64,000 bases of DNA. Origin: Squalus acanthias (taxonomy: Eukaryota). Below are positions 1 to 54,286 of this stretch, piece by piece. Position numbers and translations under genes: made by a program. Where the stretch lies: NCBI GenBank assembly GCA_030390025.1, contig JASTWF010000033.1, positions 2,048,001 through 2,112,000 on the forward strand, in the 5' to 3' direction. Within the stretch, counting starts at the first letter, position 1. Every line of letters starts with the position of its first letter. The notes under the pieces were generated by a model. The model saw nothing but the letters and a program-made list of their open reading frames with translations. It was not told the DNA's origin and searched no databases.

Positions 1-340
1 GGCTCAATGGGACCTTCCCATTGCTCGTCAAACAAATCCTTTTGCCGACGGTAACACTGATTCTGGGTGCAATGATCCTCACCCTGGGACACAGTAAATA
101 AGTCTCTTTGTAGGCAAATCCGGATGCGCTGGAGTATTCCGTCGAATTCGTTCCCAGCCATCCCGGCCACCTTCCCTTGTGGAAATAAGTGGCGGTTTCC
201 TCAGCCTTTCGCTCCCCGGTCCCATCCATCGTGATGGGGCCCGTGTCCCCGGAGCAACCGAACACAACGACATCCTTGGTGAGGCCCCGATAGGCCAATC
301 CATATCCGATCGTTGCGAGCACTATCAGAATCCTTTCCAT
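1..340 (-). CDS. env-like glycoprotein, N-terminal 113 aa (open to window edge)
   Basis: Manual translation from ATG at 340: MERILIVLATIGYGLAYRGLTKDVVVFGCSGDTGPITMDGTGERKAEETATYFHKGRWPGWLGTNSTEYSSASGFAYKETYLLCPRVRIIAPRISVTVGKRICLTSNGKVPLS, with no stop. It has a hydrophobic signal-peptide-like start, an NST sequon and 3 Cys, and lies downstream of pol. A candidate splice acceptor (ttttatctgatcacAG) ends at 353. Confidence 0.7.
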   Translation of the reverse strand, partial: MERILIVLATIGYGLAYRGLTKDVVVFGCSGDTGPITMDGTGERKAEETATYFHKGRWPGWLGTNSTEYSSASGFAYKETYLLCPRVRIIAPRISVTVGKRICLTSNGKVPLS

Positions 341-609
341 CTTTCCTGGTTCCTGTGATCAGATAAAATGATGTAGCCAGCCTCCCAAGAGTCTCTGGCT
401 TTTGTGAAGCGTGAGCGGGTCCCTTGACCTCGTCTCACGTACAAAGACACGTATGCTGGATAGACCTTAACTATTCCTATCACTAACTCCCATCATTTTA
501 CCATTTACTTTTAAAATTAAACTACAATCTTACCAAACTTAAAACATTATAAACTTAAACTTATCCTAAACGTAACTGTACAGCGCCGCCCGTTCCCAGG
601 GCGGCCTAC

Positions 610-3600
610 CTAAATTCTGTGAAGGCTGCCACGAGCTTTTCCCAGTGGCGGGGGGGCACTGACCCCTTCCATTGATCTGCCGCAGCCTGTCGTCACTGCG
701 CTGGGACTGGGATCTCCCTGGAGTGCCTTGAACTTACGCCTGGGGGTGTACGAGGGATTTGACCACAACTTCCTGGGCTGGGGTGTCCGACTCGACCTAC
801 GGAGGGCTACCTTGGGCAAGATTCCCAGGACCGACGGACCGGGAACCGAGACTTCCACCGTCACGGCCTGTGGTCCCACCACAGCCGCCGGCTCTGTCTC
901 CCCTGGCCCCGCCCCCTGGGCTCGGGACCTGCAGTTTCTGACTCCACCCTACTTGTCTCTCCAGTATGTTGAACTCCACTCACAGTCCCTGTCTCCCCTG
1001 GCCCCGCCCCCTGGGCTCCGCCCCCCTGGCCCCGCCCCCCTGGCCCCGCCCCCTGGGCTCGGGAGCTGCAGTTTCTGACTCCACCCTACTTGTCTGTCCA
1101 GTATGTGGATCTCCACTCACAATCCCTATCTCCCCTGGCCCCGCCCCCCTGGCCCCGCCCCCTGGCCCCGCCCCCTGGGCTCGGGACCTGCAGTTTCTGA
1201 CTCCACCCTACTTGTCTCTCCAGTATGTTGAACTCCACTCGCAGTCCCTATCTCCCCTGGCTCCGCCCCCTGGCCCCGCCCCCCTGGGCTCGGGAGCTGC
1301 GGTTTCTGACTCCACCCTACTTGTCTCTCCAGTATGTGTAACTCCACTCACAATCCCTGTCTCCCCTGGCCCCGCCCCCTGGCTCCGCCCCCCCTGGCCC
1401 CGCCCCCTGGCCCCGCCCCCTGGCTCCGCCCCCTGGCCCCGCCCCCTGGGCTCGGGACCTGTGGTTTCCGACTCCACCCTACTTGTCTCTCCAGTATGTT
1501 GAACTCCACTCACAGTCCCTATCTCCCCTGAGCTTGGGTCGAGGGCGGAACCTCCGTCCTCTGTCCCCACCACCTCTCCGACCGGGTCACTACCTTGGTC
1601 GAGCTCTCCGAGCTCTTCCTCATCTGAATCCCAACACCAAGAAAAGATCCTACACTTTTCCAGAATGTCCTCTCCCCTCAAGCAGGCTGCTTTACCGGCC
1701 TGTGTGCCCTGCGGTTCTACCTGGGGCTGAGAGTCCCCACTCGCAGGTTTGGCCCCTGTGATTGGCCCCTGTGCACCCGGCTTGTACAGCTTGCACTGGT
1801 TAATGTGGAACCATTTCGTGCGCCGGGGTACCTTCACGGCATACACCATGGGACTCGCCTTATCTACAATACTGTGGGGTCCCATATACAGTGGTTCCAA
1901 ACTCCCTACTCTGGCATAGTTCCTAACCATGACCTGATCTCCGACTTCCCACTCCTGCTTCTTACGGGGTTCCAGCAACAGTCGATTGCCCTGATGCTGT
2001 CTTCCCATGTTCCCAGCCGCCTGCTCGTAAACCTGCTTCAGGCGCTCCAAGAGGGTCTGGACAAACTTGTCCTTTTTCACCTTTTGGAGCTGAACCTCAG
2101 TGAGCACCGGGGCTAGTACATGGGTGGGGGTTCGCATGATCCTCCCAGTCATCACCTCGTACAGGGAATACCCCGTACTCTTCGACTGGCTGGCCCGGAT
2201 TCCCATGAGGACTAGAGGCAGAACCACCGCCCATTTTTGGGGCGAGTTCATAGTCTCTTTCCTCAGTTTCTCCTTGAGAGTCCGGTTCATGCGTTCAACA
2301 ATCCCTGATGACTGGGGATTGTGCGCTACGTGCCACTTCCCTTCAATGCCCAAAAGCATGAGGGTGTTCTGCATCACCTGGCCGGTGAACTGACTCCCTT
2401 GGTCTGACTCCACGAAACGGGGGAGTCCCCACCGCGAGAACACTTCCCGGACCAAGATCTTGGCAGTACCCAGCGCCGTAGCTGTTCTACAGGGGAAAGC
2501 TTCTACCCACTTGGAAAACACATCCACCAAGACGAGGCAGTATTTGTAGCCTCCCTGGGTGGTGGGCAGGGGCCCTATGTAATCGATCTGTATCGACTGC
2601 CATGGTCCCTCCACCCTCCTGATGTGCCCCATGTGCACTTTCCTTTTCTGGGGGTCTGGGTTGTTTGCAGCGCACACAAGACAGCTTGCACAGAACTCGC
2701 GGACCTGCTCCCTGAGTCCCGGCCACCATCCTGCCTGCTCTACCCGTTCCCAGGTAACCTCAGGCCCGGGGTGTCCTGCCCCAGGCCCCTCATGAGCCAA
2801 CTGGAGGAATTCCCTCCTGTGCTGCTGCGGCACAATCCACTGTTCCTCGCGGAACAGCATGCCTTCTTTAACGGAGAGGGTTGCCGTACTGTACGGGCCC
2901 TCTACCTGCTTGCCCTCAGTAATCGTTCTGAGAACTACTTTTAGGGCGGGATCCTGGCTCTGGACGGTCTAAAGGTCTAGGGGCAGTGCTACCCTGGTGT
3001 TCCCGGGATTCCCTTCCCTGCCTTGGATCGCTGCCACGGGTCCGGGTCCATAGGGGTCCCAGAAAATGCCGTTACGGGCACCTCCCTGGCTAGCGCATCC
3101 GCCTGCTGGTTGCCCTCCCCGCGGGGTTCTGTGGAGGAGTGAGCCTTCACCTTATGGATGAAAATCTCCCCTTCCTCCCCCACTGCTGCTAGGATCTTTT
3201 CCAGCAAGGGCTTCACCGTTAAAGGTCGTCCGTCCGCGGAGGTGTAGCCACGGCGGGACCAAATGACCAGATATTCCTTACACGAATTGCACGTAAACAT
3301 ACTGTCCGAACTAATCGTGTATGGTGTTGGGAAGATCTCTCGGTGGGTAACTACGTACGCCACCGCAGACAGCCCAGTCTGCTGCGCGCTCATCGTGCTG
3401 GGGAGTTTAATTGCCAAGGCAAGGTTTGCCGCAGGGTCATAAACTCCACACCCTGTGAGTTGTTCGCCAGCGGACACTGTGCTGGAACCATAAACATAAA
3501 TCTCGCGGCCTGTGGGATGTATCCCGGCCCGCAAACCTATGTTGACCTCCCACACGCCTTCCACCGAACACTGGTGGGCTGTCCGGGGTATACCAGGTTG

Positions 3601-5450
3601 GCCGCGAGCCTGGGCTCGCAAAGACCTTTAACTCTAAGATCCATCTGGGAAAGGAGAAGGGTCCAACGCGCAATACGAGTGCTGCTTACGGTCCCATCCT
3701 TAATCCTCCCATCCAGAAGCATCTTGGTTGGCGTGTGATGGGTGAGGAGAATGATGGGAGTGAGCCCTGTGAAGATCGCTGATCTTTTCACAGCCCAATG
3801 CGTGGCTAAAAGATGCCTCTCGCAGTTGGAAAAACTCCTCTCCACATCCGTTAACACCCTGGACGAATAGACAACCGGCCTCAGCTTGCCGTGACGCTCT
3901 TGGAGCAGCACAGCGCTCAAGCTGTCTCCGCTGGCAGCTACCTCCAGGAAAAACTCCTCCCCCCAGTCTATGGCCCCTAAAGCTGGCGCGGTCTGCAGAT
4001 CCCTTTTTAACTTCTCGAATACTGCCTGACAGCCCTCGTCCCAAGACCACTACACTCCCTTATGGAGGAGTCGGAGCAGCGGAGCTGCTGTGGCCGCATA
4101 GTCCTCGATGAAGTCTCTACAGTATCCGGTCAGTCCCAGAAAGGACCTCACACCCGTTATGGTGTTGGGAATCGGTAACTCCTGCACCGACTCCCTCCTA
4201 GCCTTATCTATGGCTCTTTCCCCAGCGCGAATGGTCAGACCCAGGAATTTTACTTCCTGCTGACCGATCCGTGCTTTCTTAGGGTTAACTTTAAAACTCT
4301 TTCTCGCTAGCAGCTCCAATAACTCGGCTAGCAGTGGTCCATGCTCCTCCCTTGAGTCCGTGAACAGGAGCAAATCATCCACGTGCTGCACTATCTGATT
4401 GGGCTGATTAAACTCCTTTAAACTTCCTGCCATACACTGATGGAAAATACTGGGGCTGTTGTGAAAACCCTGTGGCAAACAGTTCCATGTGTACTGTTGT
4501 CCTTTAAAAGTAAAGGCAAACTTGTACTGGTCCTCTCGCCGCAGCGGGATGGACCAAAAACCGTTCGAGATATCCAGAACCGTGAACGTGGTCGCGGATG
4601 CTGGGATACTCCCTATTAGGTCAGCAACTGCTGCTACTGTAGACGCGCAGGCAGGGATGTTACTGTTAAGGACTCTGTAGTCCACCGTGGCCCTCCACGA
4701 ATTATCCGGCTTCCTTACCGGCCATAATGGGGAGTTCACGTGTGTGGCTATCGGCCTCAACACGCCCTGCTGCACCAATGAGGACATTGCTGTCTCCATA
4801 TGGGGTTCTGCTTCTTTGGGGAAGTTATACTGCTTTTGGGGCCGGATCATGGGGTCCCCGTCTATGCTGACCTCAAACCCGGTAACCCTCCCACAATCGT
4901 GCTTGTGGGTTGCAAATGCGTGCATATTATCTGACACGTACGTTTGCATGTCCGTTGGGACATCCGCGAACATAAGCCTGAGGTCGTAACCTCCGGATGG
5001 CTTCATGGTACATAGGGCCCCTTTACCTTCCTTCCCCGGGATTACAACTACCTTGCCTTTCCCACCCTTGGCTCCCCAGAGACAGTGATTCCTAAGGTCC
5101 ACGAGGATCCCGTGTTCCGCTAGGAGATCCGATCCGAGGATACCTCTGCCACCCCCCTCTTGCCATTTCATCAGTATGCACTTCCATGTGGTGTGGAGTT
5201 CTCCTAAATGAATGGAGAGCGGAATGGAGAACGCGCCAGCCTGCTCTTTTCCCGTGAACCCCGCTAATGTGAATGGGACCTTGGTAGACAGTGGTGAGTC
5301 AAAGGGGCTATCCATTAGGATCACGGTGCATGAAGCTCCCGTGTCCAACAAGTAACTACCCTTCTGCTTCTCTACCTCCATCTCCACCAGGGGTCTTTTC
5401 CACGCATCATAGCTGAGCGGACACAGGTAAACTGGCTGCGCGGGCTTTAG
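610..5450 (-). pseudogene. pol: pro-pol (protease, RT, tether/RNase H-like, RNase H, integrase), disrupted
   Basis: Protease LLDTGA; RT LDISNGF, LPQGFHNSP and HVDD (YxDD altered); first RH fold SAVLLQ..RPVVYSSR..ERHLLA; second RH fold YVYGSS..SDS..HKVKAH..GNQQADALA; integrase HHCC, IDYIGP, SDQGSQF, ERMN. In-frame TAG at 4050-4052, frameshifts near 3580 and 3085, stop near 2968. Tail ORF 610-882 has an LRRSSRTPQP motif typical of integrase tails. Confidence 0.92.
896..1530. repeat. Composite GC-rich tandem repeat (5 copies of a ~110-160 bp unit with GGGGCGGGGC boxes) inside the integrase C-terminal tail
   Basis: The core CTCCACCCTACTTGTCT recurs at ~942, 1079, 1201, 1309 and 1472, separated by variable numbers of CCCTGGCCCCGCCCC subunits. 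Confidence 0.95.
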
Positions 5451-7224
5451 TCATTGGGTACTGGTGGACGGGGTTGTGGCATCTGTGGGGCCGGTAACGA
5501 CTGCCACCCTCCCGTGCGAAATCATAAGGGACCGCATGGCTCCCAACATTGATTCTATCGCATCGGGATGGATAGGCACACCAGCTCCTTTCTCAGAGAC
5601 AGGCGCTTGGGTTCGGACTGCGGGAGCTTTGTTCCTGGAGTCCTTCCAGGGATTCCTGCAGTTTTTACGCCAGTGACCTGTCTTCCCGCACCCGTAACAA
5701 ACACCACTGGTTTGTGGGGCGCGATTTCGCTCCTGATGCCACTCTTTCTGAGCCGGAGCTGCGGGCTTTGCCTCATGCACCTTTCCCTTAAGGGGACGCG
5801 CTCCCATGCTCCTAGTGTTCCGATACCATATGGTGAGTCGATTCAGGACAGACTCCTCCGTTGTGGCGGGGTTAGTGGCAAGCTGTTGGCTACCATGCAC
5901 CTGAGCCAATGAGCTTTCCCGGCGCCGTCCAGGTAGTGGCGCGCTGGCGCACCTGGGCAGCTACGCTGGTATACTGGCCACAGTCTGGCGGCGAAAACCC
6001 GCGGGGGTTCTCCCTCCATCTGTACGGTCTGACCCAATCTGACGAATGGATCTTCGTCATCCGCCCCTAACACTTCTTGGACCTCGTCCCGTAACTCCCC
6101 ATAGGTTTTATTTCCCTTCTTGGTCTCATCGGAGAGACACTGAAGGATCGAGCTATCTAAAGAGAACAGCAACATTTTGGTCTTTTCCTCGTCGTCGCTG
6201 CCATTAATTGCTGCGGTCTGTTCTACTTCCCTAAAATGTACGGAAGGGTCTTCTGACTCGGACAGCTTCCGTACATGGCTAGTCATTGCTCTCAGCTGGT
6301 GTGAGCTGTGGGGCAATACAAGTTGGTTCAGGATATCCCCGTCTGCCCCATTTGCCCCATTCGGGCCTCTCTTGTGACCTCGGAGCGGACACATCGGTCC
6401 CGGTCTCGACGTTACCTCCGGGGATTGTCCTACCTCGGGAACCTTCTTCTCTATTTCCACCACTTCCTCCCTTACCCAGGTTGCCGAATAGCTGGGTGGC
6501 GCGGAGGGCATAGTGGCAGATACCTCTTCTGCTTTTTCCGGTAGGGATTTTGGGAAATCCCTACCCGCCTGTGGCTGGCTCGCTGACGGGCTGATGAGAC
6601 ACACCAAGCCGTTTGCCTTATTCAGGGCCTCTCTTAGGTTCCCTATCTCCTTCTGGCAAACACTGTGGTCGGCTCCTCGAGAGCCATCTTGTATGCCGCC
6701 CTAACTCCCTTCAAGCTTTCTTCCTGGGCTTTTATCTGGCTAGCTAGGCGGATACACCGTTCTCTAATCCTGCCCTCGTTTAATTTTGCTTCCGTGACCT
6801 GACATTCTAGGTCATCAATTTTAGCCTCATGGTGGTTGGCTACTATTTGGCGTTCCTGATGTAACGCATTCAATGACACAATGAGTTTCTGTCCTCCCGT
6901 GACCTTTTCCTCCATCTCAACTTCCAATTCCCTGATCTGAGCTGCCTGTGCTGCAATGACCTGCTCCGAAAGTTGGACTTGCTTCTTGTAGCACATCAGC
7001 CAGACCGCTTTCTCTACCGACTTCTTATGATCTTTACTGCCTGTCCATTTGATGGCGGCGTCTAGCGGTCGCGTATCCATCAGTAGGTCACTTATCCACT
7101 TTTTGGTTAAGTTAACCTTCCCAAACACATAGTCGGCTACCCTCTCATCCATCACATTTCGCCTATTCAAACCAGGGTCTAAAACATTACTCTCCTGCTG
7201 CCAGAGTCCTGCCGCGGTCTCCAT
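5451..7224 (-). pseudogene. gag: gag, split by two frameshifts (~6660, ~5900): coiled-coil N-terminus, capsid-like middle, single CCHC zinc knuckle
   Basis: ORFs 6643-7224 (heptad-rich QIRELEVEMEEK..KIDDLECQV), 5843-6607 and 5451-5909 (CYGCGKTGHWRKNC), located between the LTR and the protease. Confidence 0.85.
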
Positions 7225-7228
7225 TTTC

Positions 7229-8895
7229 TGAAAGGGGGCGTGTCTCAGACGGTGCTGGTGCGAGGTTAGGCCTTCGTTGCCTAATACTATTGCTTGCTCT
7301 GGTATCCGGCCAGCCTTTTTGCAATAAGCACCTGTTAGTGGTTCGACCCACTCGCCCTTACGGTTCTAACACTGGACTTAGGTGCAAGGAGCAGTAATGC
7401 AGAGAAAACTCAAATAGACCCTGTTGAATAGTACGAAATGGAAATCTTTATTGCATGGCGTCTAAAATCATTAAGTACATGTCATAGGCGCAAATCAACG
7501 AGAGTACAAGTATACATACATTCATAAAGCTTGGTCTATGGAAATGAAGAACACACGGCACATCGTAAAAAGGGGAACATATTATACCTTAACCTTATTA
7601 AAAACCACCCTCACTTAACAATACCTACATTACGTCTAGATTTGTAGGATCGAAAAACATGCTCACCACTCCTGTTACTTCGGAGATTTTTAAAGTGAGG
7701 CACTCAGCTCGTTTCGCTGCAGCGCCTGACTGTCACGTGTTTGGAAGGGTCTCTGCACCCCACTTGTTTACTTTCGCTGCTGCGAAAAGCAGGCCAGACT
7801 CTCTGTTGTCATGAAGAACTCGGCAGAACTCGGAACGTTTGTAAAATTCAAAGAAGAGGCTTCCTGTGCTCGAAACAGGTTGTAGTCGGTAGAACTCAAA
7901 GAAGAGTTCTTTATTTATATTTACGGGCGCGGTCGGGGTTTACTGACCGTGGCGGCACGTGGATTCTTCTCGTCTTCTTCTCGTCTCATCTCTTCAGGCC
8001 TCCAGGTCCAGACACCATTTACCGACACTCGGGAAGGTGTACCCTGTTACTTGCCCTTGTCGGGGTGGCTCGTTCCGATTGAGCTGCACCCAACATTCGA
8101 ATAACCGACCAGTACGGCTTAGAGTCAAGAGTCAACAAAGTCCAGAGAAACACAAAGTCCAGCCCTAAGGAAAAGCTTCAGCAAGGATCTACCGAGAGAT
8201 AAGAGCCAGCCGGGAGAATAAGAGTTCAGCAGTCAGCAGCGAGATAAGAGACCGATGGACATTTGTTCTCTATAGTTATAGTGATGTGTCCCCTTATCTC
8301 CCGCTCAAATCTTAATGTTTGTCCTTTGTGTAATATTGGCGCACAAAACTCCCAGCATGGGGCGATTCTTTTCTTTAACGGGTTTCGGTAGCACCTGAAA
8401 CTGGCCAACCAGCCATTAATGTCTTCCCCATTGTTAACCAGCCAGGATGTGTATGAATCGTCTCCCTTACTGGTTTTGGGGCCTCCCCGAATATTGACTT
8501 AATCACCCGTCAATGTCTCTCTCATTGTAGAGCCGTGGTGGTATTTGTGTATTGGTATGTCTGGATGGGCCTTCAATTGCCCAGTACAATGGTCCATACT
8601 GTGAATAGGAAAACGATTCCAGCACTTATATCTTTGCTATTGTTCCAAATGCAACGGGTTGCATCCTGTCTTTATCAGTGTTTACCGAGTATGATCCAAT
8701 TTTTTACTGATTGTTTCTTCGACGCCATCTTGTCTGCTCACTGTTTTTCTGGAAGCTTCTGCCACGATGCGCGGCGGCCATTTTACAGGCTTCTGTGTCA
8801 TTTATTATCAGGACAGCAATTTGTTTAATAAAACTGATCAAACGAATCTGCTTCTCTCTTGTTATTTTGAATCGCGATAATTGCGAAACTTTACA
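7229..8895 (-). repeat. 5' LTR (~1.67 kb) of the provirus
   Basis: The minus strand begins TGTAAAG and ends CTTTCA. It shows colinear block homology over its whole length with the TSD-bounded solo LTR 54896-56527. AATAAA (minus) at 7447-7452; TATAACTATA (minus) at 8271-8280. Confidence 0.88.
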
Positions 8896-9485: not shown

Positions 9486-10699
9486 TAGAATTTACAGCAC
9501 AAAACAGGCCATTCGGCCACACTAGGTTATGCCAGTGTTTATGCTCCACAGGAGCCTCCTCCCACCCCTCTTCATCTCACCCGATCAGCATAACCTTCTA
9601 CTGCTTTCTACCTCGTGTACTTCTCTCGCTTCCCCTTAAATGCATCTCTGCTATTCGCCTCAAGTACTCCAAGTTGTAGGGAGTTCCACATTCTAACCAA
9701 TCTCTGAGTAAAGACATTTCTCCTCAATTCCGTATTGGATTTATTAGTGACTCTCTTTTATCGATAATCTCCAATTTTGCACTCACGTCACGAGTATAAA
9801 CATCTACCCTATGTTACCCCTTCAAAATTTAAAGGCCTCTATTAGGCCACCCCTCAGCCTTCTCTTTTGTAAAGAAAGGAGCCCCAGCCTGTTCAATCTT
9901 TCCTGATGCTTATAATGTCTCAGTTCTGGTGTCATCCTTGTAAAAATATTACACTTTCTCCAGAGCCTTAATATCCTTTATGTAATATGGAGATCAGAAC
10001 TGCACACAGTCCGCTCAGTGTGGTATAACCAAGGTTCGATATAAGTTTAAGCTAACCACTTTGCTTTACGATTCTATTCTTCTAGAAATGAACCCCAGTG
10101 CTTTGTTTCCATGTTTATGGTCATGTTAACATGCGTTGCTACTTTAAATGATTTGTTAATCGGTGCCCCTCTACCCCATTCCCACTCTGATTTCCAAGGA
10201 GTATTTGGGAAACTTATTCTTCCTAGCAAAATGCAGTACCTCTCACTTAGCTATATTGAAATTAATTTGCCATTTAAACGCCCTTTCTGCAAGTGTATTA
10301 ATGTCTGGCGGTATTGTATTGCATTCTTCCTCTGTATTAACTGTACTTCCAATTTGGATTCATCTGCAAATTTTGAATTTGTTCTTCTGCTTCCCGATTC
10401 AATATCGTTTATGTAAATGGTGAACAACAATGATTGCAACGCCGATCCTTGTGGAACATCACTTCTCACCATCCACCTATCTGAGTAAATAGCTTTATCC
10501 ACTACTCCCTATTTTCTGTTCTTGCAGCCATCTTGCTATCCATTCTGCTGCTTGTCTCCTAACTCCACTTGCTCTGTGATTCAGTCTGCTATGTGGTACC
10601 TTATCGAATGGCTTTAAAAAATCAAATATATCTCCTGCATAACCCTTATCTAATCTTTCTGATACTTATTCAAATAATTCACTAAGGTTACTCAAGCAA
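9486..10699 (-). mobile_element. Old degenerate CR1-type LINE fragment (continues at ~11435-11610 after a nested insertion)
   Basis: Minus-strand remnants VPQGS..LFTIYIND..SKFADESKL, with a 3' tail at 9486. The distal part has RPVSITSMVGKLMES. Confidence 0.75.
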
Positions 10700-11434
10700 G
10701 ACATTCCAAAGTGGGTGCAGGAACAGAGGGACCTGGGGGTACATGTACAAAAATCATTGAAGGTGGCAGGGCAGGTTGAGAAAGCGGTTAAAAATGCTTA
10801 CGGGAATCTGAGCTTTATAAATAGAGGCATAGAGTACAAAAGCAAAGAAGTTATGATGAACATTTATGAAACATTGGTTCGGCCACAACTGGAGTATTGT
10901 GTCCAATTCTGGGCACCGCACTTTAGGAAGGGGCATGAAGGCTTTAGAGAGGGTGCAGAAAAGATTCACAAGAATGTTTCCAGGGATGAGGGACTTCAGT
11001 TATGTAGATATACTGGAGAAGCTGGGGTTGTTCTCAGTAGAGCAGAGAAGATTGAGAGGAGATTTGATAGAATGGATCAAAATCATGAGGGTTCTAGACA
11101 GAGTAGATAGAGAGAAGCTGTTCCCATTGGTAGAACGGTCAAGAACCAGAGGGCACAGGTTTTAGGTGATGTGCTGAAGATCCAAAGGTGACATGAGAAA
11201 CAACTTTTTAAGGCAGCGTTGGGTTATGATCTGTAATGCACAGCCTGAAAGGGTGGTGCAGGCAGATTCAATCGTGGCTTTCAAAAGGAAATGGGGTAAG
11301 TACCTGAAGGAAAATAATTGCAGGGCTACGGTGAAAGGGCAGGGATTGGGATTAGCTGCACTGCATGTGCAGAGAGTGAGCACGGGCTCGACAGGCCGAA
11401 TGGCCTCCTTCTGTGCTGTAACCATTTTATGATT
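10700..11434 (+). mobile_element. 5'-truncated CR1 LINE (RT C-terminus and 3' tail)
   Basis: QRDLGVHV, LVRPQLEYCVQFWAP, RRLRGDLIE, RTRGH; tail GGCCGAATGGCCTCCTTCTGTGCTGTAA. Confidence 0.9.
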
Positions 11435-24470: not shown

Positions 24471-24812
24471 TGGTCACTTGTCACTTAACTGCGCAGTCTG
24501 TATGTTTTCTAATGTCCATTGTGAGATGTCATGTAGAGAAATGTCTTTTCAATATTTGAAGCAAAGCATCAGTGTATTGAATAAAAAACAATAATAATTA
24601 ATAAAGGCAGCCATCTAAAACTGTGTGTGGATTTGGAATTTTATCAGAAAATCTGAGGATTTATTGCAAAGTAAACTCTTGGCTTCTCACATTGCACCAC
24701 TGCTTTTCGAAGAAGTTGGTGATGATATTATTTATTTCAAATAAAAGAACTGCTCTCCTGTTTGCATCAGGCTCCCTTTGTGACTTCCGATATATGCATC
24801 GAACATCGTAAA

Positions 24813-27800
24813 CTCCTCCCCACCCCACCTAATATCCTCAGCTCCTCCCCACCCCACCTAATATCCTCAGCTCCTCCCCACCCCACCTAATATCCTCAGC
24901 TCCTCCCCACCCCACCTAATATCCTCAGCTCCTCCCCACCCCACCTAATATCCTCAGCTCCTCCCCACCCCACCTAATATCCTCAGCTCCTCCCCACCCA
25001 CCTAAAATCCTCAGCTCCTCCCCACCCCGCCTAATATCCTCAGCTCCTCCCCACCCCACCTAATATCATCAGCTCCTCCTCACCCCACCAGATATCCTCA
25101 GCTCCTCCCCACCCCACCTAATATCCTCAGCTCCTCCCCACCCCACCTAATATCCTCAGCTCCTACCCACCCCACCTAATATCCTCAGCTCCTCCCCACC
25201 CCACCTAATATCCTCAGCTCCTCCCCACCCCACCTAATATCCTCAGCTCCTCCCCACCCCACCTAATATCCTCAGCTTTCAACACCCCACCTAATATCCT
25301 CAGCTCCTCTCCACCCCATCTAATATCCTCAGCTCCTCCCCACCCCACCTAATATCCTCAGCTCCTCCCCACCCCATCTAATATCCTCAGACCCTCCCCA
25401 CACCACCTAATATCCTCAGCTCCTCCCCACTCCACCTAATATCCTCAGCTCCTGCCCACCCCATCTAATATCCTCAGCTCCTCCCCACCTCACCTAATAT
25501 CCTCAGCTCCTCCCCACCCCTCCTAATATCCTCAGCTCCTCCTGAACCCACCTCATATCCTCAGCTCCTCCCCATCTAATATCCTCAGTTCCTCCCCACC
25601 CCACCTAATATCCTCAGCTCCTCCCCACCACACCTAATATTCTCAGCTCCTCCCCACCCCACCTAAAATCCTCAGCTCCTCCCCACCTAATATTCTCAGC
25701 TCCTCCCCACCCCACCTAATATCCTGAGCTCCTCCTGAACCCACCTAATATCCTCAGCTCCTCCCCACCCCATCTAATATCCTCAGCTCCTCCCCACCCC
25801 ACCTAATATCCTCAGCTTCTCTCCACCCCACCTAATATCCTCAGCTCCTCCCCACCCCACCTAATATCCTCAGCTTCTCTCCACCCCACCTAATATCCTC
25901 AGCTTCTCTCCACCCCACCTAATATCCTCAGCTCCTCCCCACCCAACCTAATATCCTCAACTCCTCCCCACCCCACCTAATGACCTCAGCTCCTCCCCAC
26001 CCCACGTAATATCCTCAGCTCCTCCTGAACCCAACTAATAACCTCGGCTCCTCCCCACCCCACCCAATATCCTCAGCTCCTCCTGAAATCACCTAATATC
26101 CTCAGCTCCTCCACACCCCATCTAATATCCTCAGCTCCTCCCCACAGCACCGAATATCCTCAGCTCCTCCCCACCCCACCTAATATCCTCAGCTCCTCCC
26201 CACCCCACCTAATATCCTCAGCTCCTCCCCACCCCACGTAATATCCTCAGCTCCTCCTGAACCCACCTAATAACCTCGGCTCCTCCTCACCCCACCTAAT
26301 ATCCTCAGATCCTCCCCACCCCACCAGATATCCTCAGCTCCTCCCCACCCCACCTAATATCCTCAGTTCCCCCCCACCCCACCTAATATCCTCAGCTCCT
26401 CCCCACCCCACCTAATATCCCCAGCTCCTCTGCACCCCATCTAATATTCTCAGCTCCACCCCACCCCACCTAATATCCTCAGCTCCTCCTGAACCCACCT
26501 AATATCTTCAGCTCCTCCCCACCCCACTTAATATCCTCAGCTCCTCCCCACCCCAGCTAATATCCTCAGCTCCTCCCCACCCCACCTAATATCCTCAGCT
26601 CCTCCCCACCCCACCTAATATCCCCAGCTCCTCTCCACCCCATCTAATATTCTCAGCTCCACCCCACCCCACCTAATATCCTCAGCTCCTCCTGAACCCA
26701 CCTATTATCTTCAGCTCCTCCCCACCCCACCTAATATCCTCAGCTCCTCCCCACCCCACCTAATATCCTCAGCTCCTCCCCACCCCACCTAATATCCTCA
26801 GCTCCTCCCCACCCCACCTAATATCCGCAGCTCCTCTCCACCCCATCTAATATTCTCAGCTCCACCCCACCCCACCTAATATCCTCAGCTCCTGCCCACT
26901 CCACCTAATATCCTCAGCTCCTCCCCACCCCACCTAATATCCTCAGACCCTCCCCACACCACCTATTATCCTCAGCTCCTCCCCACCCCACCTAATATCC
27001 TCAGCTCCTCCCCACTCAACCTAATATCCTCAGCTCCTGTCCACCCCACCTAATATCCTCAGCTCCTCCCCACTCCACCTAATATCCTCAGCTCCTGCCC
27101 ACCTCACCTAATATCCTCAGCTCCTCCCCACCCCACCTAATATCCTCAGCTCCTCCTGAACCCGCCTCATATCCTCAGCTCCTCCCTATCTAATATCCTC
27201 AGTTCCTCCCCACCCCACCTAATATCCTCAGCTCCTCCCCATCCCACCTAATATTCTCAGCTCCTCCCCACCCCATCTAATATCCTCAGCTCCTCCTGAA
27301 CCCACCGAATATCCTCAGCTCCTCCCCACCCCACCTAATATCCTCAGCTCCTCCTGAACCCACCTAATATCCTCAGCTCCTCCCCACCCCACCTAATATC
27401 ATCAGCTCCTCCCCACCTAATATCCTCAGCTCTGCCTGAACCCACCTAATATCCTCAGGTCCTCCCCACCCCACCTAATATCCTCAGCTCCTCCCCACCC
27501 CACCTAATATCATCAGCTCCTCCCCACCTAATATCCTCAGCTCCTCCTGAACCCACCTAATATCCTCAGCTCCTCCACACCCCACCTAATATCCTCAGGT
27601 CCTCCCCACCCCATCTAATATACTCAGCTCCTCCCCACCCCACCTAATATCATCAGCTCCTCCCCACCTAATATCCTCAGCTCCTCCTGAACCCACCTAA
27701 TATCCTCAGCTCCTCCACACCCCACCTAATATCCTCAGGTCCTCCCCACCCCATCTAATATAAACAGCTTCTCTCCACCCCACCTAATATCCACAGCTCC

Positions 27801-30800
27801 TCCCCACCCCACCTAATGTCCTCAGCTCCTCCCCACCCCAACTAATATCCTCAGTTCCTCCCCACCCCACCTAATATCCTCAGCTCCTCCCCACCCCACC
27901 TCATATTCTCAGCTCCTCCCCAACCCATCGAATATCCTCAGCTCCTCCCCACCGCACCAAATATCCTCAGCTCCACCCCACCCCACCTAATATCCTCAGC
28001 TCCTCCCCACCCCACCTAATATCCTCAGCTCCTCCCAACCCCACCTAATATCTTCAGCTCCTCCCCACCCCACCTAATATCCTCAGCTCCTCCCCACCTC
28101 ACCTAATATCTTCAGCTCCTCCCCACCCCACCTAACATCCTCAGCTCCCCCCCACCCCAACTAATATCCTTAGCTCCTCCCAACCCCACCTAATATCCTC
28201 AGCTCCCCCCACCCCACCTAATATCCTCAGACCCTCCCCACACCACCTAATATCCTCAGCTCCTCCCCACCCCACCTAATATCCTCAGACCCTCCCCACA
28301 CCACCTAATATCCTCAGCTCCTCCCCACCCCACCTAATATCCTCAGCTCCTCCCCACTCCACCTAATATTCTCAGCTCCTGCCCACCCCATCTAATATTC
28401 TCAGCTCCTCCCCACCTCACCTAATATCCTATGCACCTCCCCACCCCACCTAATTTCCTCAGCTCCTCCTGAACCAACCTAATATCCTCAGCTCCTTCCA
28501 CAACCCACAATATCCTTAGTCCTCCCCACCCCACCTAATATCCTCAGTTCCCTTTCACCCCACCTATATCCTCAGCTCTCCCCACCCCACCTAACTCCCC
28601 AGCTCCTCGCTCCCCCACCTAATATCTCAGCTCTCCTCACCCCATCCTAATATCCCAGCTCCACCCCACCCCACCTAATTCCTCAGCTACCTGCCCCACT
28701 CCCACCTATATCCTCAGCTCTCCCCCACCCCACCTATATCCTCAGGCTCCCCTCAACCCACCTAATATCTCAGCTCTCCCCACCCCACCTAATACCTCAG
28801 CTCCTCCCCACCCCACCTAATATCCTCAGCTCCTGCCCACCCCACCTAATATCCTCAGCTCCTCCCCACCACACCTAATATCCTCAGCACCTCCCCACCC
28901 CACCTAATATCCTCAGCTCCTCCTGAACCCACCTAATATCCTCAGCTCCTCCCCATCTAATATCATCAGTTCCTCCCCACCCCACCTAATATCCTCAGCT
29001 CCTCCCCACCCCACCTAATATTCTCAGCTCCTCCCCACCCCACCTAATATCCTCAGCTCCTCCCCACGCCATCTAATATCCTGAGCTCCTCCTGAACCCA
29101 CCTAATATCCTCAGCTCCTCCCCACCCCATCTAATATCCTCAGCTCCTCCCCACCCCATCTAATATCCTCAGCTCCTCCCCACCTAATATCCTCAGCTTC
29201 TCTCCACCACACCTAATATCTTCTGCTCCTCCCCACCGCACCTAATATCCTCAACTCCTCCCCACCCCACCTAATATCCTCAGCTTCTCCCCACCCCACG
29301 TAATATCCTCAGCTCCTCCCCACCCCACCTAATATCCTCAGCTCCTCCTGAACCCACCTAATATCCTCAGCTCCTCCCCACCCCACCTAATATCATCAGC
29401 TCCACCCCACCTAATATCCTCAGCTCCTCCCGACCCCACCTAATATCCTCAGCTCCTACCCACCCCACCTAATATCCTCAGCTCCTCCCCAACCCACCTA
29501 ATATCCTCAGCTCCTCCCCACCCCACCTAATATCCTCAGCTCCTCCCCACCCACCTAATATCCTCAGCTCCCCCCACCCCACCTAATATCCTCAGCTCCT
29601 CCCCACCCCACCTAATATCCTCAGCTCCTCCCCACCCCACCTAATATCCTCAGCTCCTCCCCACCCCACCTAATATCCTCAGCTCTCCCACCCCACCTAA
29701 TATCATCAGCTCCTCCCCACCCCACCTAATATCCTCAGCTCCTCCTAACCCACCTAATATCCTCAGCTCCTCCCCACCCCACCTAATATCCTCAGCTCCT
29801 CCCCACCCCACCTAATATCCTCAGCTCCTCCCCACCCCACCTAATATCCTCAGCTCCTCCCCACCCCACCTAATATCCTCAGCACCTCCCCACCCCACCT
29901 AATATCCTCAGCTCCTCCCCACCCCACCTAATATCCTCAGCTCCTCCCCACCCCACCTAATATCCTCAGCTCCTCCCCACCCCACCTAATATCCCCAGCA
30001 TCCTCGCCACCCCATCTAATATTCTCAGCTCCACCCCACTCCACCTTTTATCCTCAGCTCCTCCCCACCCCACCTAATATCCTCAGCTCCTGCCCACTCC
30101 ACCTAATATCCTCAGCTCCTCCCCACCCCACCTAATATCCTCAGACCCGCCCCACACCACCTAATATCCTCAGCTCCTCCCCACCCCGCCTAATATCCTC
30201 AGCTCCTCCCCACTCCACCTAATATCCTCAGCTCCTGCCCACCCCATCAAATATCCTCAGCTCCTCCCCTCCTCACCTAATATCTTCTGCACCTCCCCAC
30301 CCCACCTAATATCCTCAGCTCCTCCTGAACCCACCTCATATCCTCAGCTCCTCCCCATCTAATATCCTCAGATCTTCCCCACCCCACATAATATTCTCAG
30401 CCCCTCCCCACCCCACCTAATATCCTCAGCTCCTCCCCACCCCATCTAATATCCTGAGCTCCACCTGAACCCACCTAATATCCTCAGCTCCTCCCCACCC
30501 ATCTAATATCCTCAGCTCCTCCCCACCACATCTAATATCCTCAGCTCCTCCCCACCTAATATCCTCAGCTTCTCTCCACCCCACCTAATATCCTCAGCTC
30601 CTCCCCACCGCACCTAATATCCTCAACTCCTCCCCACCCCACCTAATATCCTCAGCTTCTCCCCACCCCACGTAATATCCTCAGCTCCTCCCCACCCCAC
30701 CTAATATCCTCAGCTCCTCCTGAACCCACCTAATATCCTCAGATCCTCCCCACCCCACCTAATATCCTCAGCTCCTCTCCACCCCATCTAATATTCTCAG

Positions 30801-33800
30801 CTCCACCCCACCCCACCTAATATCCTCAGCTCCTGCCCACTCCACCTAATATCCTCAGCTCCTCCCCACCCCACCTAATATCCTCAGACCCTCCCCACAC
30901 CACCTAATATCCTCAGCTCCTCCCCACCTCACCTAATATCCTATGCACCTCCCCACCCCACCTAATATCCTCAGCTCCTCCTGAACCCACCTCATATCCT
31001 CAGCTCCTCCCCATCTAATATCCTCAGTTCCTCCCCACCCCACCTAAAATCCTCAGCTCCTCCCCACCCCACCTAATATTCTCAGCTCCTTCCCACCCCA
31101 CCTAATATCCTCAGCTCCTCCTGAACCCACCTAATATCCTCAGCTCCTCCCCACCCCACCTAATATCATCAGCTCCTCCCCACCTAATATCCTCAGCTGC
31201 TTCTGAACCCACCTAATATCCTCAGCCCCTCCACACCCCACCTAATATCCTCAGCTCCTCCACACCCCATCTAATATCCTCAGCTCCTCCCCACCCCACC
31301 TAATATCCTCAGCTCCTCCCCACCTAATATCCTCAGCTTCTCTCCACCCCACCTAATATCCACAGCTCCTCCCCACCCCACCTAATATCCTCAGCTCCTC
31401 CACACCCCATCTAATATCCTCAGCTCCTCCCCACCTAATATCCTCAGCTTCTCTCCACCCCACCTAATATCCTCAGCTCCTCCCCACCCCACCTAATATC
31501 CTCAACTCCTCCCCACCCCACCTAATATCCTCAGCTCCTCCCCACCCCACGTAATATCCTCAGCTAATCCCCACCCCACCTAATATCCTCAGCTCCTCCT
31601 GAACCCACCTAATATCCTCAGCTCCTCCCCACCACACCTAATATCCTCAGCTCCTCCCCACCTATTATCCTCAGCTCCTCCTGAACCCACCTAATATCCT
31701 CAGCTCCTCCACACCCCACCTAATATCCTCAGGTCCTCCCCACCCCATCTAATATCCTCAGCTCCTCCCCTCCCCACCTAATATCCTCAGCTCCTCCCCA
31801 CCCCACCTAATATCCTCAGCTCCTCCTGAACCCACCTAATATCTTCAGCTCCTCCCAACCCCACCTAATATCCTAAGCTCCCCCCCACCCCACCTAATAT
31901 CCTCAGCTCCTCCTAAACCCACCTAATATCTTCAGCTCCTCCCCACCCCACCTAATATCCTCAGCTCCTCCCCACCCCACCTAATATCCTCAGCTCCTCC
32001 ACACCCCACCTAATATCCTCAGCTCCTCCCCACCCCACCTAATATCCTCATCTCCTCCCCACCCCACCGATATCTTCAGCTCCTCCCCACCCCATCTAAT
32101 ATCCTCAGCTCCTCCCCACCCCACCTAATATCCTTAGCTCCCCCCCACCCCACCTAATATCCTCAGCTCCTCCCCACCCCACCTAATATCCCCAGCTCCT
32201 CTCCACTCCATCTAATATTCTCAGCTCCACCCCACCCCACCTAATATCCTGAGCTCCTGCCCACTCCACCTAATATCATCAGCTCCTCCCCACCCCACCT
32301 AATATCCTCAGACCATCATCACACCACCTAATATCCTCAGCTCCTCCCCACTCCACCTAATATCCTCAGCTCCTGCCCTCCCCATCTAATATCCTCAGCT
32401 CCTCCCCACCTCACCTAATATCCTATGCACCTCCCCACCCCACCTAATATCCTCAGCTCCTCCTGAACCCACCTCATATCCTCAGCTCCTCCACATCTAA
32501 TATCCTCAGTTCCTCCCCACCCCACCTAATATCCTCAGCTCCTCACCACCCCACCTAATATCCTCAGCTCCTCCCCACCCCATCAAATATCCTGAGCTCC
32601 TCCTCAACCCACCTAATATCCTCAGCTCCTCCCCACCCCATCTAATATCCTCAGCTCCTCCCCACCCCATCTAATATCCTCAGCTCCTCCCCACCTAATA
32701 TCCTCAGCTTCTCTCCACCCCACCTAATATCCTCAGCTACTCCCCACCGCACCTAATATCCTCAACTCCTCCCCACCCCACCTAATATCCTCAGCTCCTC
32801 CCCAACCCACGTAATATCCTCAGCTCCTCCCCACCCCACCTAATATCCTCAGCTCCTCCCCAACCAACCTAATATCCTCAGCTCCTCCACTCCCCACCTA
32901 ATATCCTCAGGTCCTCCCCACCCCATCTAATATCCTCAGCTCCTCCCCACCCCACCGAATATCCTCAGCTCCTCCCCACCTAATATCCTCAGCTTCTCTC
33001 CACCCCACCTATTATCCACAGCTCCTCCCCACCCCTCCTAATATCCTCAGCTCCTCCCCACCCCACCTAATATCCTCAGCTCCTCCCCACCCGACCTAAT
33101 ATCCTCAGCACCTCCCCACACCACCTAATATCCTCAGCTCCTCCCCACCCCTCCTAATATCCTCAGCTCCTCCCACACCACCTAATATGCTCAGCTCCTC
33201 CCCACCCCACCTAATATACTCAGCTCCTCCCCACCCCACCTAATATCCTCAGCTCCTCCCCGGCCCTCCTTATATCCTGAGCTCCTCCCCACCCCACCTA
33301 ATATCCTCAGCTCCTCCTGAACCCACCTAATATCCTCAGCTCCTCCCCACCCCACCTAATATCCTCAGCTCCTCCCCACCCCACCTAATCTCCTCAGCTG
33401 CTCCCCGCCCCTCCTAATATCCTCAGCCCCTCCCCACCTAATATCCTCAGCTCCTCCCCACCCCACCTAATATCCTCAGCTCCTCCCCACCCCATCTAAT
33501 ATCCTCAGCTCCTCCCCACCTAATATCTTCAGCTTCTCTCCACCTCAGCTAATATCCTCAGCTCCTCCCCACCCCACCTAATATCCTCAAGTCCTCCCCA
33601 CCCCACCTAATATCCTCAGCTCCTCCCCACCCCACGTAATATCCTCAGCTAATCCCCACCCTACCTAATATCCTCAGCTCCTCCTGAACCCACCTAATAT
33701 CCTCAGCTCCTCCCCACCCCATCTAATATCCTCAGCTCCTCCCCACCCCATCTAATATCCTCAGCTCCTCCTGAACCCACCTAATATCCTCAGCTCCTCC

Positions 33801-34980
33801 CCACCTAATATCCTCAGCTCCTCCTGAACCCACCTAATATCCTCAGCTCATCCCCACCCCACCTAATATCCTCAGCTCCTCCACACCCCACCTAATATCC
33901 TCAGCTCCTCCCCACCCCACCTAATATCCTCAGCTCTTCCACACCCCACCTAATATCCTCAGCTCCTCCCCACCCCACCTAATATCCTCAGCTCCTCCCC
34001 ACCCCACCTAATATCCTCAGCTCCTCCCCACCCCACCTAATATCCTCAGCTCCTCCCCACCCCACCTAATATCCTCAGCTCCTCCCCACCCCACCTAATA
34101 TCCTCAGCTCCTCCCCACCCCACCTAATATCCTCAGCTCCTCCCCACCCCACCTAATATCCTCAGCTCCTCCCCACCCCACCTAATATCCTCAGCTCCTC
34201 CCCACCCCACCTAATATCCTCAGCTCCTCCCCACCCCACCTAATATCCTCAGCTCCTCCCCACCCCACCTAATATCCTCAGCTCCTCCCCACCCCACCTA
34301 ATGTCCTCAGCTCCTCCTGAACCCACCTAATATCCTCAGCTCCTCCCCACCCCACCTAATATCCTCAGCTCCTCCCCACCCCACCAGATATCCTCAGCTC
34401 CTCCCCACCCCACCTAATATCCTCAGCTCCCCCCCACCCCACCTAATATCCTCAGCTCCTCCCCGCCCCACCTAATATCCCCAGCTCCTCTCCACCCCAT
34501 CTAATATTCTCAGCTCCACCCCACCCCACCTAATATCCTGAGCTCCTGCCCACTCCACCTAATATCCTCAGCTCCTCACCACCCCACCTAATATCCTCAG
34601 ACCCTCCCCATGCCACCTAATATCCTCAGCTCCTCCCCACCACACCTAATATCCTCAGCTCCTCCCCACTCCACCTAATATCCTCAGCTCCTCCCCACCC
34701 CACCTAATATCCTCAGCTCCTCCCCACCCCACCTAATATCCTCAGCTCCTCCCCGCCCCTCCTAATATCCTCAGCCCCTCCCCACCTAATATCCTCAGCT
34801 CCTCGCCACCCCACCTAAAATCCTCAGCTCCACCCCACCTCACCTACAATCCTCAGCTCCTCCCCACCCCACCAAATATCCTCAGCTCCTCCCCACCTCA
34901 CCTAATATCCTCAGCTCCTCCCCACCCCACCTACAATCCTCAGCTCCTCCCCAGCTAATAGTCTCAGCTCCTCCCCACCA
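24813..34980. repeat. 29-bp minisatellite array (CTCCTCCCCACCCCACCTAATATCCTCAG)n, ~10.2 kb
   Basis: Directly visible, with recurring variants (CTGAAC, 24-bp deletion units) and a nearly pure stretch at ~33960-34300. Confidence 0.99.
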
Positions 34981-35194
34981 ATGTTTCCTCGAATTTTTTT
35001 GCACTGAGCGGCCATGAACTCCTTTGAGCGACCTTTTCGGCCGTGGGCAAATTTTACAACAACAAATTTTAGAACAACTTTTAGTAAAGCAACTTTTACA
35101 ACAGCGACAGCAACAACAACAACAAGTTAAAATCATATATACAGTAATGAGGTATTCTCACCCCACCGTCTCAAATCATGAGACAATCAGACAA

Positions 35195-40923: not shown

Positions 40924-41660
40924 TGAATGGTGGAATTGGCTGAGTGAGGAATAACCTCCTCCTGTTCCTATGTCACAGGCTCGAGGGGCTGAATGGCCTC
41001 CTCCTGTCCCTATATAACAGGCTCGAGGGGCTGAATGGCCTTTCCTGTTCCTATGTAACAGGCTCGATGGCCTGAATGACCACCTCCTGTTCCTATGTAA
41101 CAGGCTCGAGGGGCTGAATGGCCTCCTCCTGTTCCTATATAACAGGCTCGAGGGGCTGAATGGCCTTTCCTGTTCCTATGTAACAGGCTCGAGGGGCTGA
41201 ATGGCCTCCTCCTGTTCCTAATGTAACAGGCTCGAGGGGCTGAATGGCCTCCTCCTGTTCCTGTGTAACAGGCTCGAGGGGCTGAATGGCCTCCTCCTCT
41301 TCCTATATAATAGGCTCGATGGCCTTTTGACTTCCTCCTGTTCCTATGTAACAGGCTCGAGGGGCTGAATGGCCTCCTCCTGTTCCTATGTAACAGGCTT
41401 AATGGACTGAATGGCCCACTCCCTTTGCTATATACCTGTCTTTAGGATCTTCATGAACTGCTTATTTTCCTACGTAGCAGGCTTGTGGGGTTTAATGGCT
41501 TTGTCCGATGTAACAACCTCGAGGGGTTTAATGGCCTACTCCTGTGCCTATGTAACTCGCTCAAGATTCTGAATTGCCTATTTCATTACGTTTTTAACAG
41601 GCTTGAGGGACTGAATGTCCAATCAATGTTTATATGTAACAGGTTCGATGGGTTGAATGT
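40924..41660 (+). repeat. 42-bp minisatellite derived from the CR1 3' terminus
   Basis: Unit ACAGGCTCGAGGGGCTGAATGGCCTCCTCCTGTTCCTATGTA (period 41101 to 41143) matches the CR1 tail GCAGGCTCGA.GGGCCGAATGGCCT..TCCTGCTCCTAT at ~38370-38410. Confidence 0.9.
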
Positions 41661-53600: not shown

Positions 53601-54285
53601 AATTTCACAGAATCCCCACAATGCAGATAGAGGCCATTTCGGCCCATCGAGCCTGCACCGACACATATCCCACCCTATCCCCGTAACCCTACGTATTTAA
53701 TCCCCCTAACACTAAGGGTCAATTTATCATAGCCAAATCAACCTAACCCGCACATCTTTAGACTGTGGGAATAAACCGGAGCACCTGGAGGAAACCCACG
53801 CAGACACGGGGAGAATGTGCAAACTCCACACAGACAGTCACCCGTGGCCGGATTCGAATCTGGGTCCCTGGCGCTGTGAGGCAACAGTGCTAACCATTAT
53901 GCCACCATGTTGCCCAGCCAATATTTATCCCCGGTGTCCTTGGCCAATACTTATCCCCGGTGTCTTGGACCAATATTTATCCCCGTTGTCCCATGCAATA
54001 TTTATCCCCGGTGTCCCAGCCAATATTTATCCCCGGTGTCCCTGCCAATATTTATCCCCGGTGTCCTGGGCCAATATTTATCCCCGGTGTCCTGGGCCAA
54101 TATATATCCCCGGTGTCCTGGGCCAATATTTATCCCCGGTGTCCTGGGCCAATATTTATCCCCGGTGTCCTGGCTAATATTTATCCCCGGTGTTCTGTGC
54201 CAATATTTATCCCCGGTGTCCTGGGCCAATATTTATCCCCGGTGTCCTGGGCCAATATTTATCCCCGGTGTCCTGGGACAATATT
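41660..54285. repeat. 25/26-bp minisatellite array (GGCCAATATTTATCCCCGGTGTCCTG)n, ~12.6 kb, with higher-order duplications
   Basis: Directly visible. The ORF track shows recurring near-identical blocks offset by 1058, 2060, 1791 and 229 bp. Confidence 0.99.
53596..53915 (-). mobile_element. HE1-like V-SINE (tRNA-derived head, V-domain, CR1-like tail)
   Basis: The minus strand starts GGGCAACATGGTGGC..TGGTTAGCACTG..GATTCGAATCC (A/B boxes), then V-domain GTGTGGAGTTTGCACATTCTCCCCGTGTCTGCGTGGGTTTCC and tail GATGGGCCGAAATGGCCTC. It is flanked by AGCCAATATTT at 53585-53595 and 53916-53926. Confidence 0.9.
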
Positions 54286-54286
54286 T

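Follow-up and report, generated by a model that had tools for sequence, protein, structure and literature searches.

The gag and pol genes of an endogenous retrovirus on the minus strand of the window (the whole stretch of 64,000 nucleotides that was analyzed) lie in one reading frame, separated by a single UGA codon at 5451..5453. Judging from the sequence, the Pol of the once-active virus was probably made by low-level ribosomal readthrough of this UGA. The stop and its context are strongly indicated to be common to the family. Gag-pol readthrough, even at UGA junctions, has already been reported for several fish and frog retroviruses; a UGA-CUA(G) context kept across a retroviral family is apparently unreported, since no such context was found for any retrovirus in the excerpted review PMC13517186, nor in the literature searched, where few subscription journals are covered.

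The junction and the element around it

Read on the minus strand from 5459 to 5388, the junction begins ACC CAA TGA CTA AAG CCC GCG CAG, with the TGA at 5453-5451 directly followed by CTA. When all stops are listed, this TGA is the only one in the gag-protease-RT frame between 5963 and 4052. In the upstream part of the frame (5454-5960), Pfam recognizes a zinc knuckle (E 3.4e-4; 21 bits, with a cut-off of 20.8); in the downstream part (4053-5450), it recognizes the protease of a retrovirus (E 6.4e-5, over residues 17-114) and a reverse transcriptase (RT; E 4e-34). The original prediction, that gag and pol form one frame across a single UGA, is thus borne out. The last Gag codon, at 5454..5456, is CAA, coding for Gln, the residue which also ends all three full-length skate Gags. 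The hexamer at the in-frame stop, UGACUA, falls within the definition of type II sites (UGA-CUA/CGG) given in an excerpt of PMC13517186. In the window copy the CTA is followed by A (5447..5450), while the other copies mostly read UGA-CUA-G. CTA accounts for only 17 of the 1641 codons (1.0%) in the element's frames, so that a random nonsense change would rarely be found with CTA after it.

The element, all of it on the minus strand, is a decayed, multi-copy endogenous retrovirus. Its gag, with the first ATG at 7224, extends over 5454..7224, as traced by tblastn of the skate Gag P0030 (47-59% identity, three pieces); in the window copy it is split over three frames, with frame changes near 6694-6673 and 5915-5852, and the Gag frame is identified by the nucleocapsid CCHC zinc knuckle at 5655..5702 (PF00098). 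The aspartic protease domain occupies 5109..5402 (PF00077), with the catalytic DTG at residue 36 after the stop. The RT core (4230..4718, PF00078) carries a non-standard residue in its catalytic motif, near 4385, and is followed by a premature stop at 4052-4050. The rest of pol, at 2027..4049, comprises an RNase H-like tether, RNase H and integrase (PF17919, PF00075, PF17921, PF00665); tblastn of P0256, the closest Pol, indicates that the frame changes near 3588-3585 and again near 3238-3043, and that a stop is present at 2971. A further pol stop, at 3154, sits in the overlap of two alignments and may be an alignment effect. Compared with its natural relatives, the window copy has no fewer than two further premature stops and four frame changes in all, and is itself unable to make either protein, Gag or Gag-Pol.

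The presence of a tether and a second RNase H before the integrase, found by Pfam in both the window and P0256, indicates a retroviral layout, as opposed to that of Ty3/gypsy. A frame with a hydrophobic beginning (340-2), running past the window edge, is a possible start of env: it has no Pfam match, and its best atlas score, 0.79, gives no lead. An LTR-like block is found upstream of gag, while the 3' end of the element lies beyond the window, in which no tRNA genes are present.

The closest named Gag belongs to the skate Rhinoraja longicauda (66% in the capsid; one match among 731 candidates), which makes a cartilaginous fish the probable host. The closest Pol, P0256, is unbroken, 1145 aa long and 81% identical; it is annotated as a stand-alone gene, beginning within the protease. 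Trees were built from RT cores. By IQ-TREE (53 chosen sequences, 215 columns, search stopped at 60 iterations), the window RT groups with that of snakehead retrovirus (SnRV) in a clade of 10 (UFBoot 99), inside and above which branching is weak (26-65). By FastTree, it falls with SnRV in a clade of 15 (support 0.90); of 166 sequences with a coverage of 185 residues or more, 148 entered this tree, 18 redundant cluster members having been removed. The SnRV RT, P0036, was matched by eye to the published one, and is 44% identical to that of the window. Feline foamy virus, MLV-like and Loki-like RTs all lie outside the window's clade; the Loki-like ones, labelled by eye from a published alignment, form a separate clade (UFBoot 100). 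The SnRV-related group corresponds to clade Huo, class III endogenous retroviruses (ERVs) included (Xu et al., excerpt of PMC6001957), and the element is an SnRV-like class III member of it. As in SnRV, gag-pro-pol is a single frame with a stop after gag.

Other assignments were rejected. A lokiretrovirus is not supported by the RT tree, and the Gag and Pol ends published for lokiretroviruses look different. Foamy viruses (Spumaretrovirinae) have a Gag without Cys-His box and a pol that starts independently in a different frame (PMC8278194), whereas here Gag has a CCHC motif, and the gag and pol frames are identical. The type III readthrough of gammaretroviruses (UAG-G plus an H-type pseudoknot) does not apply, the codon being UGA. 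Scans for related loci gave no confirmed locus, either from 3 pattern matches in viral contigs or from 68 in metagenome contigs.

Conservation of the stop and possible routes to Pol

According to the proposed mechanism, most ribosomes would terminate at the TGA, producing a Gag some 590 residues long with Gln at its end, while a few percent would decode the UGA as an amino acid and continue through protease, RT, RNase H and integrase. By the usual rules for UGA, this amino acid would be Trp, Arg or Cys. Readthrough would likely be driven mainly by the UGA-CUA(G) context: in human genes, the heptamer UGACUAG gives at least about 1.3% readthrough (excerpt of PMC13517186). Retroviral readthrough stops are located, according to the same excerpt, between zinc knuckle and protease, and the finding of one frame with one stop in just this place speaks for readthrough. 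So does the combination of two other features: no X-XXY-YYZ slippery heptamer occurs within 5301-5650, which led to rejection of a -1 frameshift route to Pol, and the first in-frame Met after the stop, residue 24, is within the protease domain. The calling of the unbroken P0256 Pol as a separate gene, starting inside the protease, was counted on the same side.

Conservation of the stop was evaluated in related copies. Twenty runs, from nine studies, carry part of the stretch; none of them is listed as RNA, although seven are presumed to be, and this says nothing about expression. Four of the twenty, from four different organisms, were aligned on 5200-5980, with 1134, 386, 111 and 11 contig records, mostly at least 90% alike. 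No change at 5448-5453 is found among the best-supported 40 of 147 variable places in the four runs, and no insertions or deletions are listed in the alignment of 5200-5980; minor sense-codon variants, or a change limited to a single run, may still exist beyond these 40 places. At position 5447, in contrast, 89%, 99%, 100% and 100% of the depth (36, 14, 11 and 2 contigs) carry another base than the window, indicating UGA-CUA-G as the usual context of the family; this matches the known vertebrate readthrough motif more closely than the window copy does. Among the 32 listed pieces there is none that spans the stop with 31 letters to either side; in X20, the most distant run, the stop is covered by only 2-3 contigs.

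More distant relatives point in the same direction. Three of the four skate Gags in the cluster are C-terminally full length (the fourth is a 334-aa form, ending early): at 47% local identity, they end 12 residues past the same motif as the window Gag, in Gln, although these records show the position of the Gag end, not the identity of the stop codon or the bases following it. In the elephant-shark CmiERV lineage I provirus, the zinc knuckle is followed by CAA-TGA-CAT-G, in frame into protease (excerpt of the supplement of PMC4422223, by eye). The junction of XtERV-S reads GAT-TGA-CAG-G (supplement of PMC8278194, by eye), and that of an African bullfrog provirus GAT-TGA-CTA-G (PMC8278194, supplementary file 5, assigned by the text's numbering, by eye). 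Distant relatives, then, keep TGA-C. A sense codon in other copies, which would have reduced the TGA to an accident of one copy, is seen in none of the relatives examined, including the four runs (best 40 of 147 places), the skate Gags and the elephant-shark and frog proviruses. The stop does not look copy-specific, and the core of the original prediction, Pol made by UGA readthrough, finds support in the single in-frame stop, in the shared TGA and in the lack of sense codons in these relatives.

Translation of Pol from a spliced mRNA of its own, the strategy of foamy viruses, with an acceptor just upstream of protease and the TGA as an ordinary Gag stop, is the best surviving alternative, albeit an improbable one. 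A pyrimidine-rich stretch ending in CAG (5413..5431, minus strand), identified by eye from sequence only, lies directly upstream of the protease, four codons before the start of the Pfam match, and is taken as a possible splice acceptor on the basis of the acceptor consensus. The closest solved RTs are those of foamy viruses (E 2e-50, vs 1e-42 for the MLV type), but the RT tree places the element with SnRV, apart from feline foamy virus. Moreover, splicing needs neither a shared frame nor a leaky context, yet both recur in the family, in the elephant shark and in frogs, and the Gag features a CCHC knuckle, absent in foamy viruses (PMC8278194). No joints are listed in the four-run alignment, which is made of DNA contigs and hence is uninformative on splicing.

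Less probable still is an inherited defect: a nonsense change would have arisen in an ancestor with single-frame gag-pol, whose defective descendants would have multiplied with the help of other elements. The heavily broken state of the window copy fits with this possibility, as does the similarity of the four aligned runs, which are close relatives (mostly at least 90% alike) and could share one old mutation. Gene models from coelacanth (P0259) and toad (P0045) also feature 235-265 residues, Gag-like or other, in frame before the protease; they lack a CCHC motif, and may be either spliced predictions or true fusions. On the other hand, the skate Gags end at the same register, at 47% local identity, and CAA-TGA-C stands at the corresponding site of the elephant-shark provirus (excerpt of PMC4422223). 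On the pol side, 10 of the 14 variable places listed fall on third codon positions (P 0.004), which points to past selection on pol, and the family includes an unbroken Pol. On the gag side, third positions are 10 of 26 (P 0.36), with no bias.

An independent start of Pol, with ribosomes reinitiating past the Gag stop or entering internally, appears equally remote. Gene callers do begin the Pol of relatives at an internal Met, or at an alternative start, inside the protease, and in Candida Tca2, where a UGA separates gag and pol, its bypass has been questioned (excerpt of PMC2194720). Yet the first in-frame Met, at residue 24, is seven residues into the protease match, so that an independent product would be without the first strand of the protease; we infer that the annotated internal starts are artefacts of the callers.

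Finally, a nonsense mutation private to the window copy was a real rival, worth testing because this copy is broken elsewhere, with its other premature stops and frame changes, but it is scarcely credible: private changes show as rows near 100% (e.g. 5430, 5633, 5729, 5806), none of which falls in 5448-5453 among the best 40 of 147 places, the skate Gags end at the same place, and CTA would follow a chance stop only rarely. The most probable route to Pol is UGA readthrough.

RNA structure after the stop

The original prediction also envisaged the help of a short hairpin, GCGCA...TGCGT, just downstream of the stop. This hairpin can form in a 72-nt fold, but is not supported, being no more stable than expected by chance (z -0.47; 63 of 200 shuffles fold as well). 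Short local folds are at chance level too: z ranges from -0.72 to +0.81 in six folds, and from -1.2 to +1.0 in 16 windows of 40-120 nt.

Of the 24 windows tried, longer ones scored better, the best (z -3.3) being 200 nt long, from base 13 after the stop. It corresponds to a predicted extended stem-loop at 5233..5441 on the minus strand, starting at +13 from the U of UGA (z -2.9, 1 of 200 shuffles as stable). This long, irregular structure scores between -2.3 and -3.3 over the fold tests and, when folded within a longer sequence, runs from +13 to 5233. Throughout the element, z is -2 or lower in 17 of 54 windows and -3 or lower in 7 of 54: the stem-loop, thus, is not exceptional within the element. 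Of the 13 listed variable places in its span, 8 are unpaired, 4 keep the pair and 1 breaks it; pairs are thus broken at 1 of 13 places, where 29% would be expected (P 0.08, or 0.19 when third positions alone are counted), and two-sided changes are not seen among these 13 places. Stimulation of readthrough by the long predicted stem-loop may be taken as a weak lead, suggested by the folding model.

Comparison with known retroviruses and readthrough systems

In the excerpt of PMC13517186, the gammaretroviral UAG with its pseudoknot is the only retroviral readthrough signal verified by experiment, and the cis-elements of fish retroviruses are described as unclear. A family keeping UGA-CUAG across several host species offers a natural, testable case of a retrovirus using a vertebrate cellular motif, and suggests that the class III ERVs of fishes and frogs have TGA-C junctions in common. 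A readthrough junction would also explain the N-terminally clipped, stand-alone Pol genes of class III ERVs found in databases. The known capabilities of retroviruses are unchanged by the finding. A wider proposal, that class III retroviruses of cartilaginous fish and frogs make Gag-Pol by alphavirus-style UGA-CUA(G) plus a long stem-loop from about +13, is possible but rather doubtful. If true, retroviral readthrough would exist in two independent forms, the gammaretroviral one with UAG and pseudoknot and this one, whose age might reach hundreds of millions of years and which would have escaped notice because Gag is annotated separately from a "NYNRIN-like" Pol.

SnRV and clade Huo share with the element the RT clade and the arrangement of gag and pol in one frame with a stop between them, a layout noted for SnRV in the excerpt of PMC1224870 (presumably by Jern et al.). 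The stop of SnRV, in contrast, is UAG-GGC, a near-type III context (excerpt of PMC13517186), so that the UGA-CUA(G) context of the window family is not universal in the clade. In the excerpted part of a pseudoknot survey, none is reported after the stop of either SnRV or WDSV (PMC3835772). CmiERV lineage I from elephant shark (Han 2015, excerpt of PMC4422223) is also SnRV-like, resides in a cartilaginous fish and features a CCHC Gag, followed by CAA-TGA-C into protease; unlike in the window, the codon after TGA is CAT, not CTA. The junction is not discussed in the excerpted main text of that paper.

XtERV-S and the African bullfrog provirus (Yedavalli et al., PMC8278194) are class III elements as well, with gag and pol in frame across TGA, in the contexts TGA-CAG-G and TGA-CTA-G, respectively; the authors state that this TGA can be suppressed. 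They differ in being ERV-L-related, in having a dUTPase-like segment and in a Gag that lacks CCHC (PMC8278194). Stop context is not discussed in the main text of that paper, from which "CUA", "CTAG", "context" and "alphavir" are absent.

Lokiretroviruses (excerpt of PMC7947760) resemble the element in their dual RNase H, in having relatives annotated as "NYNRIN-like" and in the long helical N-terminus of Gag, but form a separate RT clade. Readthrough is not mentioned in the excerpted main text on lokiretroviruses (PMC7947760), nor is a passage on it present in that of the Odin paper (PMC9040795), and gag-pol readthrough is absent from the excerpts of the Troyka and ERVi papers (PMC12440569, PMC10435555).

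The original prediction had opposed UGA-CUA, as a leaky context, to the UAG read through by gamma- and epsilonretroviruses. UGA-CUA is indeed a known leaky context, but a contrast with retroviruses as users of UAG is overdrawn: salmon swim bladder sarcoma virus, a zebrafish ERV and a toad ERV are all on record with UGA junctions (excerpt of PMC13517186), and so is XtERV-S (PMC8278194). The retroviral contexts given in the excerpted review are UAGGGA, UAGGAU, UAGGGC (SnRV), UGAAGA, UGACGA and UGAAGU. In MoMLV, SSSV, ZFERV and RMEV the stop serves the same purpose, and has the same place between zinc knuckle and protease, as in the window; MoMLV, however, uses UAG-GGA plus a pseudoknot, and the contexts of SSSV, ZFERV and RMEV are UGAAGA, UGACGA and UGAAGU, none of them UGACUA (excerpt of PMC13517186).

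The closest counterpart, as for signal, is type II readthrough, defined by UGACGG or UGACUA and used by alphaviruses, coltiviruses and PSIV (Kamoshita 2026 review, excerpt of PMC13517186). The hexamer is that of Sindbis virus, and the heptamer that of human UGA-CUAG genes. The stem-loops of the alphaviruses VEEV and SINV start at +12 to +16 (excerpt of PMC13517186), and the one predicted in the window at +13; the latter would be longer, about 209 nt against 126-177, and the signal would control a retroviral Gag-Pol. Taken together, the sequence comparisons indicate that the UGA junction was most likely functional in the once-active virus, where, by analogy, it would have worked like the type II readthrough of alphaviruses and of vertebrate UGA-CUAG genes.

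Pol proteins of related elements

Many of the long frog Pol proteins of the same clade (the P0031 cluster, P0257 and P0258) are named "protein NYNRIN-like": these begin at a Met, three residues upstream of the protease Asp. Such start positions would fit a readthrough that annotation has missed in intact endogenous retroviruses of frogs. The gene models P0259, from coelacanth, and P0045, from toad, contain 235–265 in-frame residues ahead of the protease, and a CCHC motif is absent from these residues in both. The two models may reflect either predicted introns flanking a stop, or real fusions.

The 3' part of pol and other repeats in the window

Among 54 windows of the element, the best predicted fold is found at 2739–2938, on the minus strand (z -6.2, against 30 shuffles), close to the boundary between RNase H and integrase. 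A G-rich tandem array (900–1530), composed of 3–5 copies of units of about 109–137 nt, lies where the integrase frame continues as an open tail. A further minus strand open frame (2–340), which starts with a Met and a hydrophobic stretch and continues past the window edge, is likely to be the start of a putative env.

Upstream of gag lies an LTR- or leader-like block (7251–8887), with an AATAAA near 7450. A related copy, about 72% identical, is located 48 kb away, at 54930–56520; no internal genes were seen beside it, and it is possibly the solo LTR of a sister family. Three frames (10643–11165, 54480–54944 and 56623–57987) resemble LINE reverse transcriptases, presumably of the CR1/L2 kind. 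Two long satellite arrays are also present, at about 24670–35000 and 41000–54300: one is made of about 340 copies of a 29-nt unit, with a strong strand skew, the other of short units.

The two ends of Gag

When contigs from sequencing runs of four organisms are compared with the window, the match to the gag tail breaks off at 5462, nine bases upstream of the junction stop, in three records per run for three of the four runs, while the pol side matches. This pattern suggests a divergent subfamily, in which similarity returns just ahead of the junction. The Gag N-terminus (6673–7224, minus strand) is long, helical and coiled-coil-like, with only weak Pfam matches; it is reminiscent of the "smc" region described in lokiretroviruses (PMC7947760).
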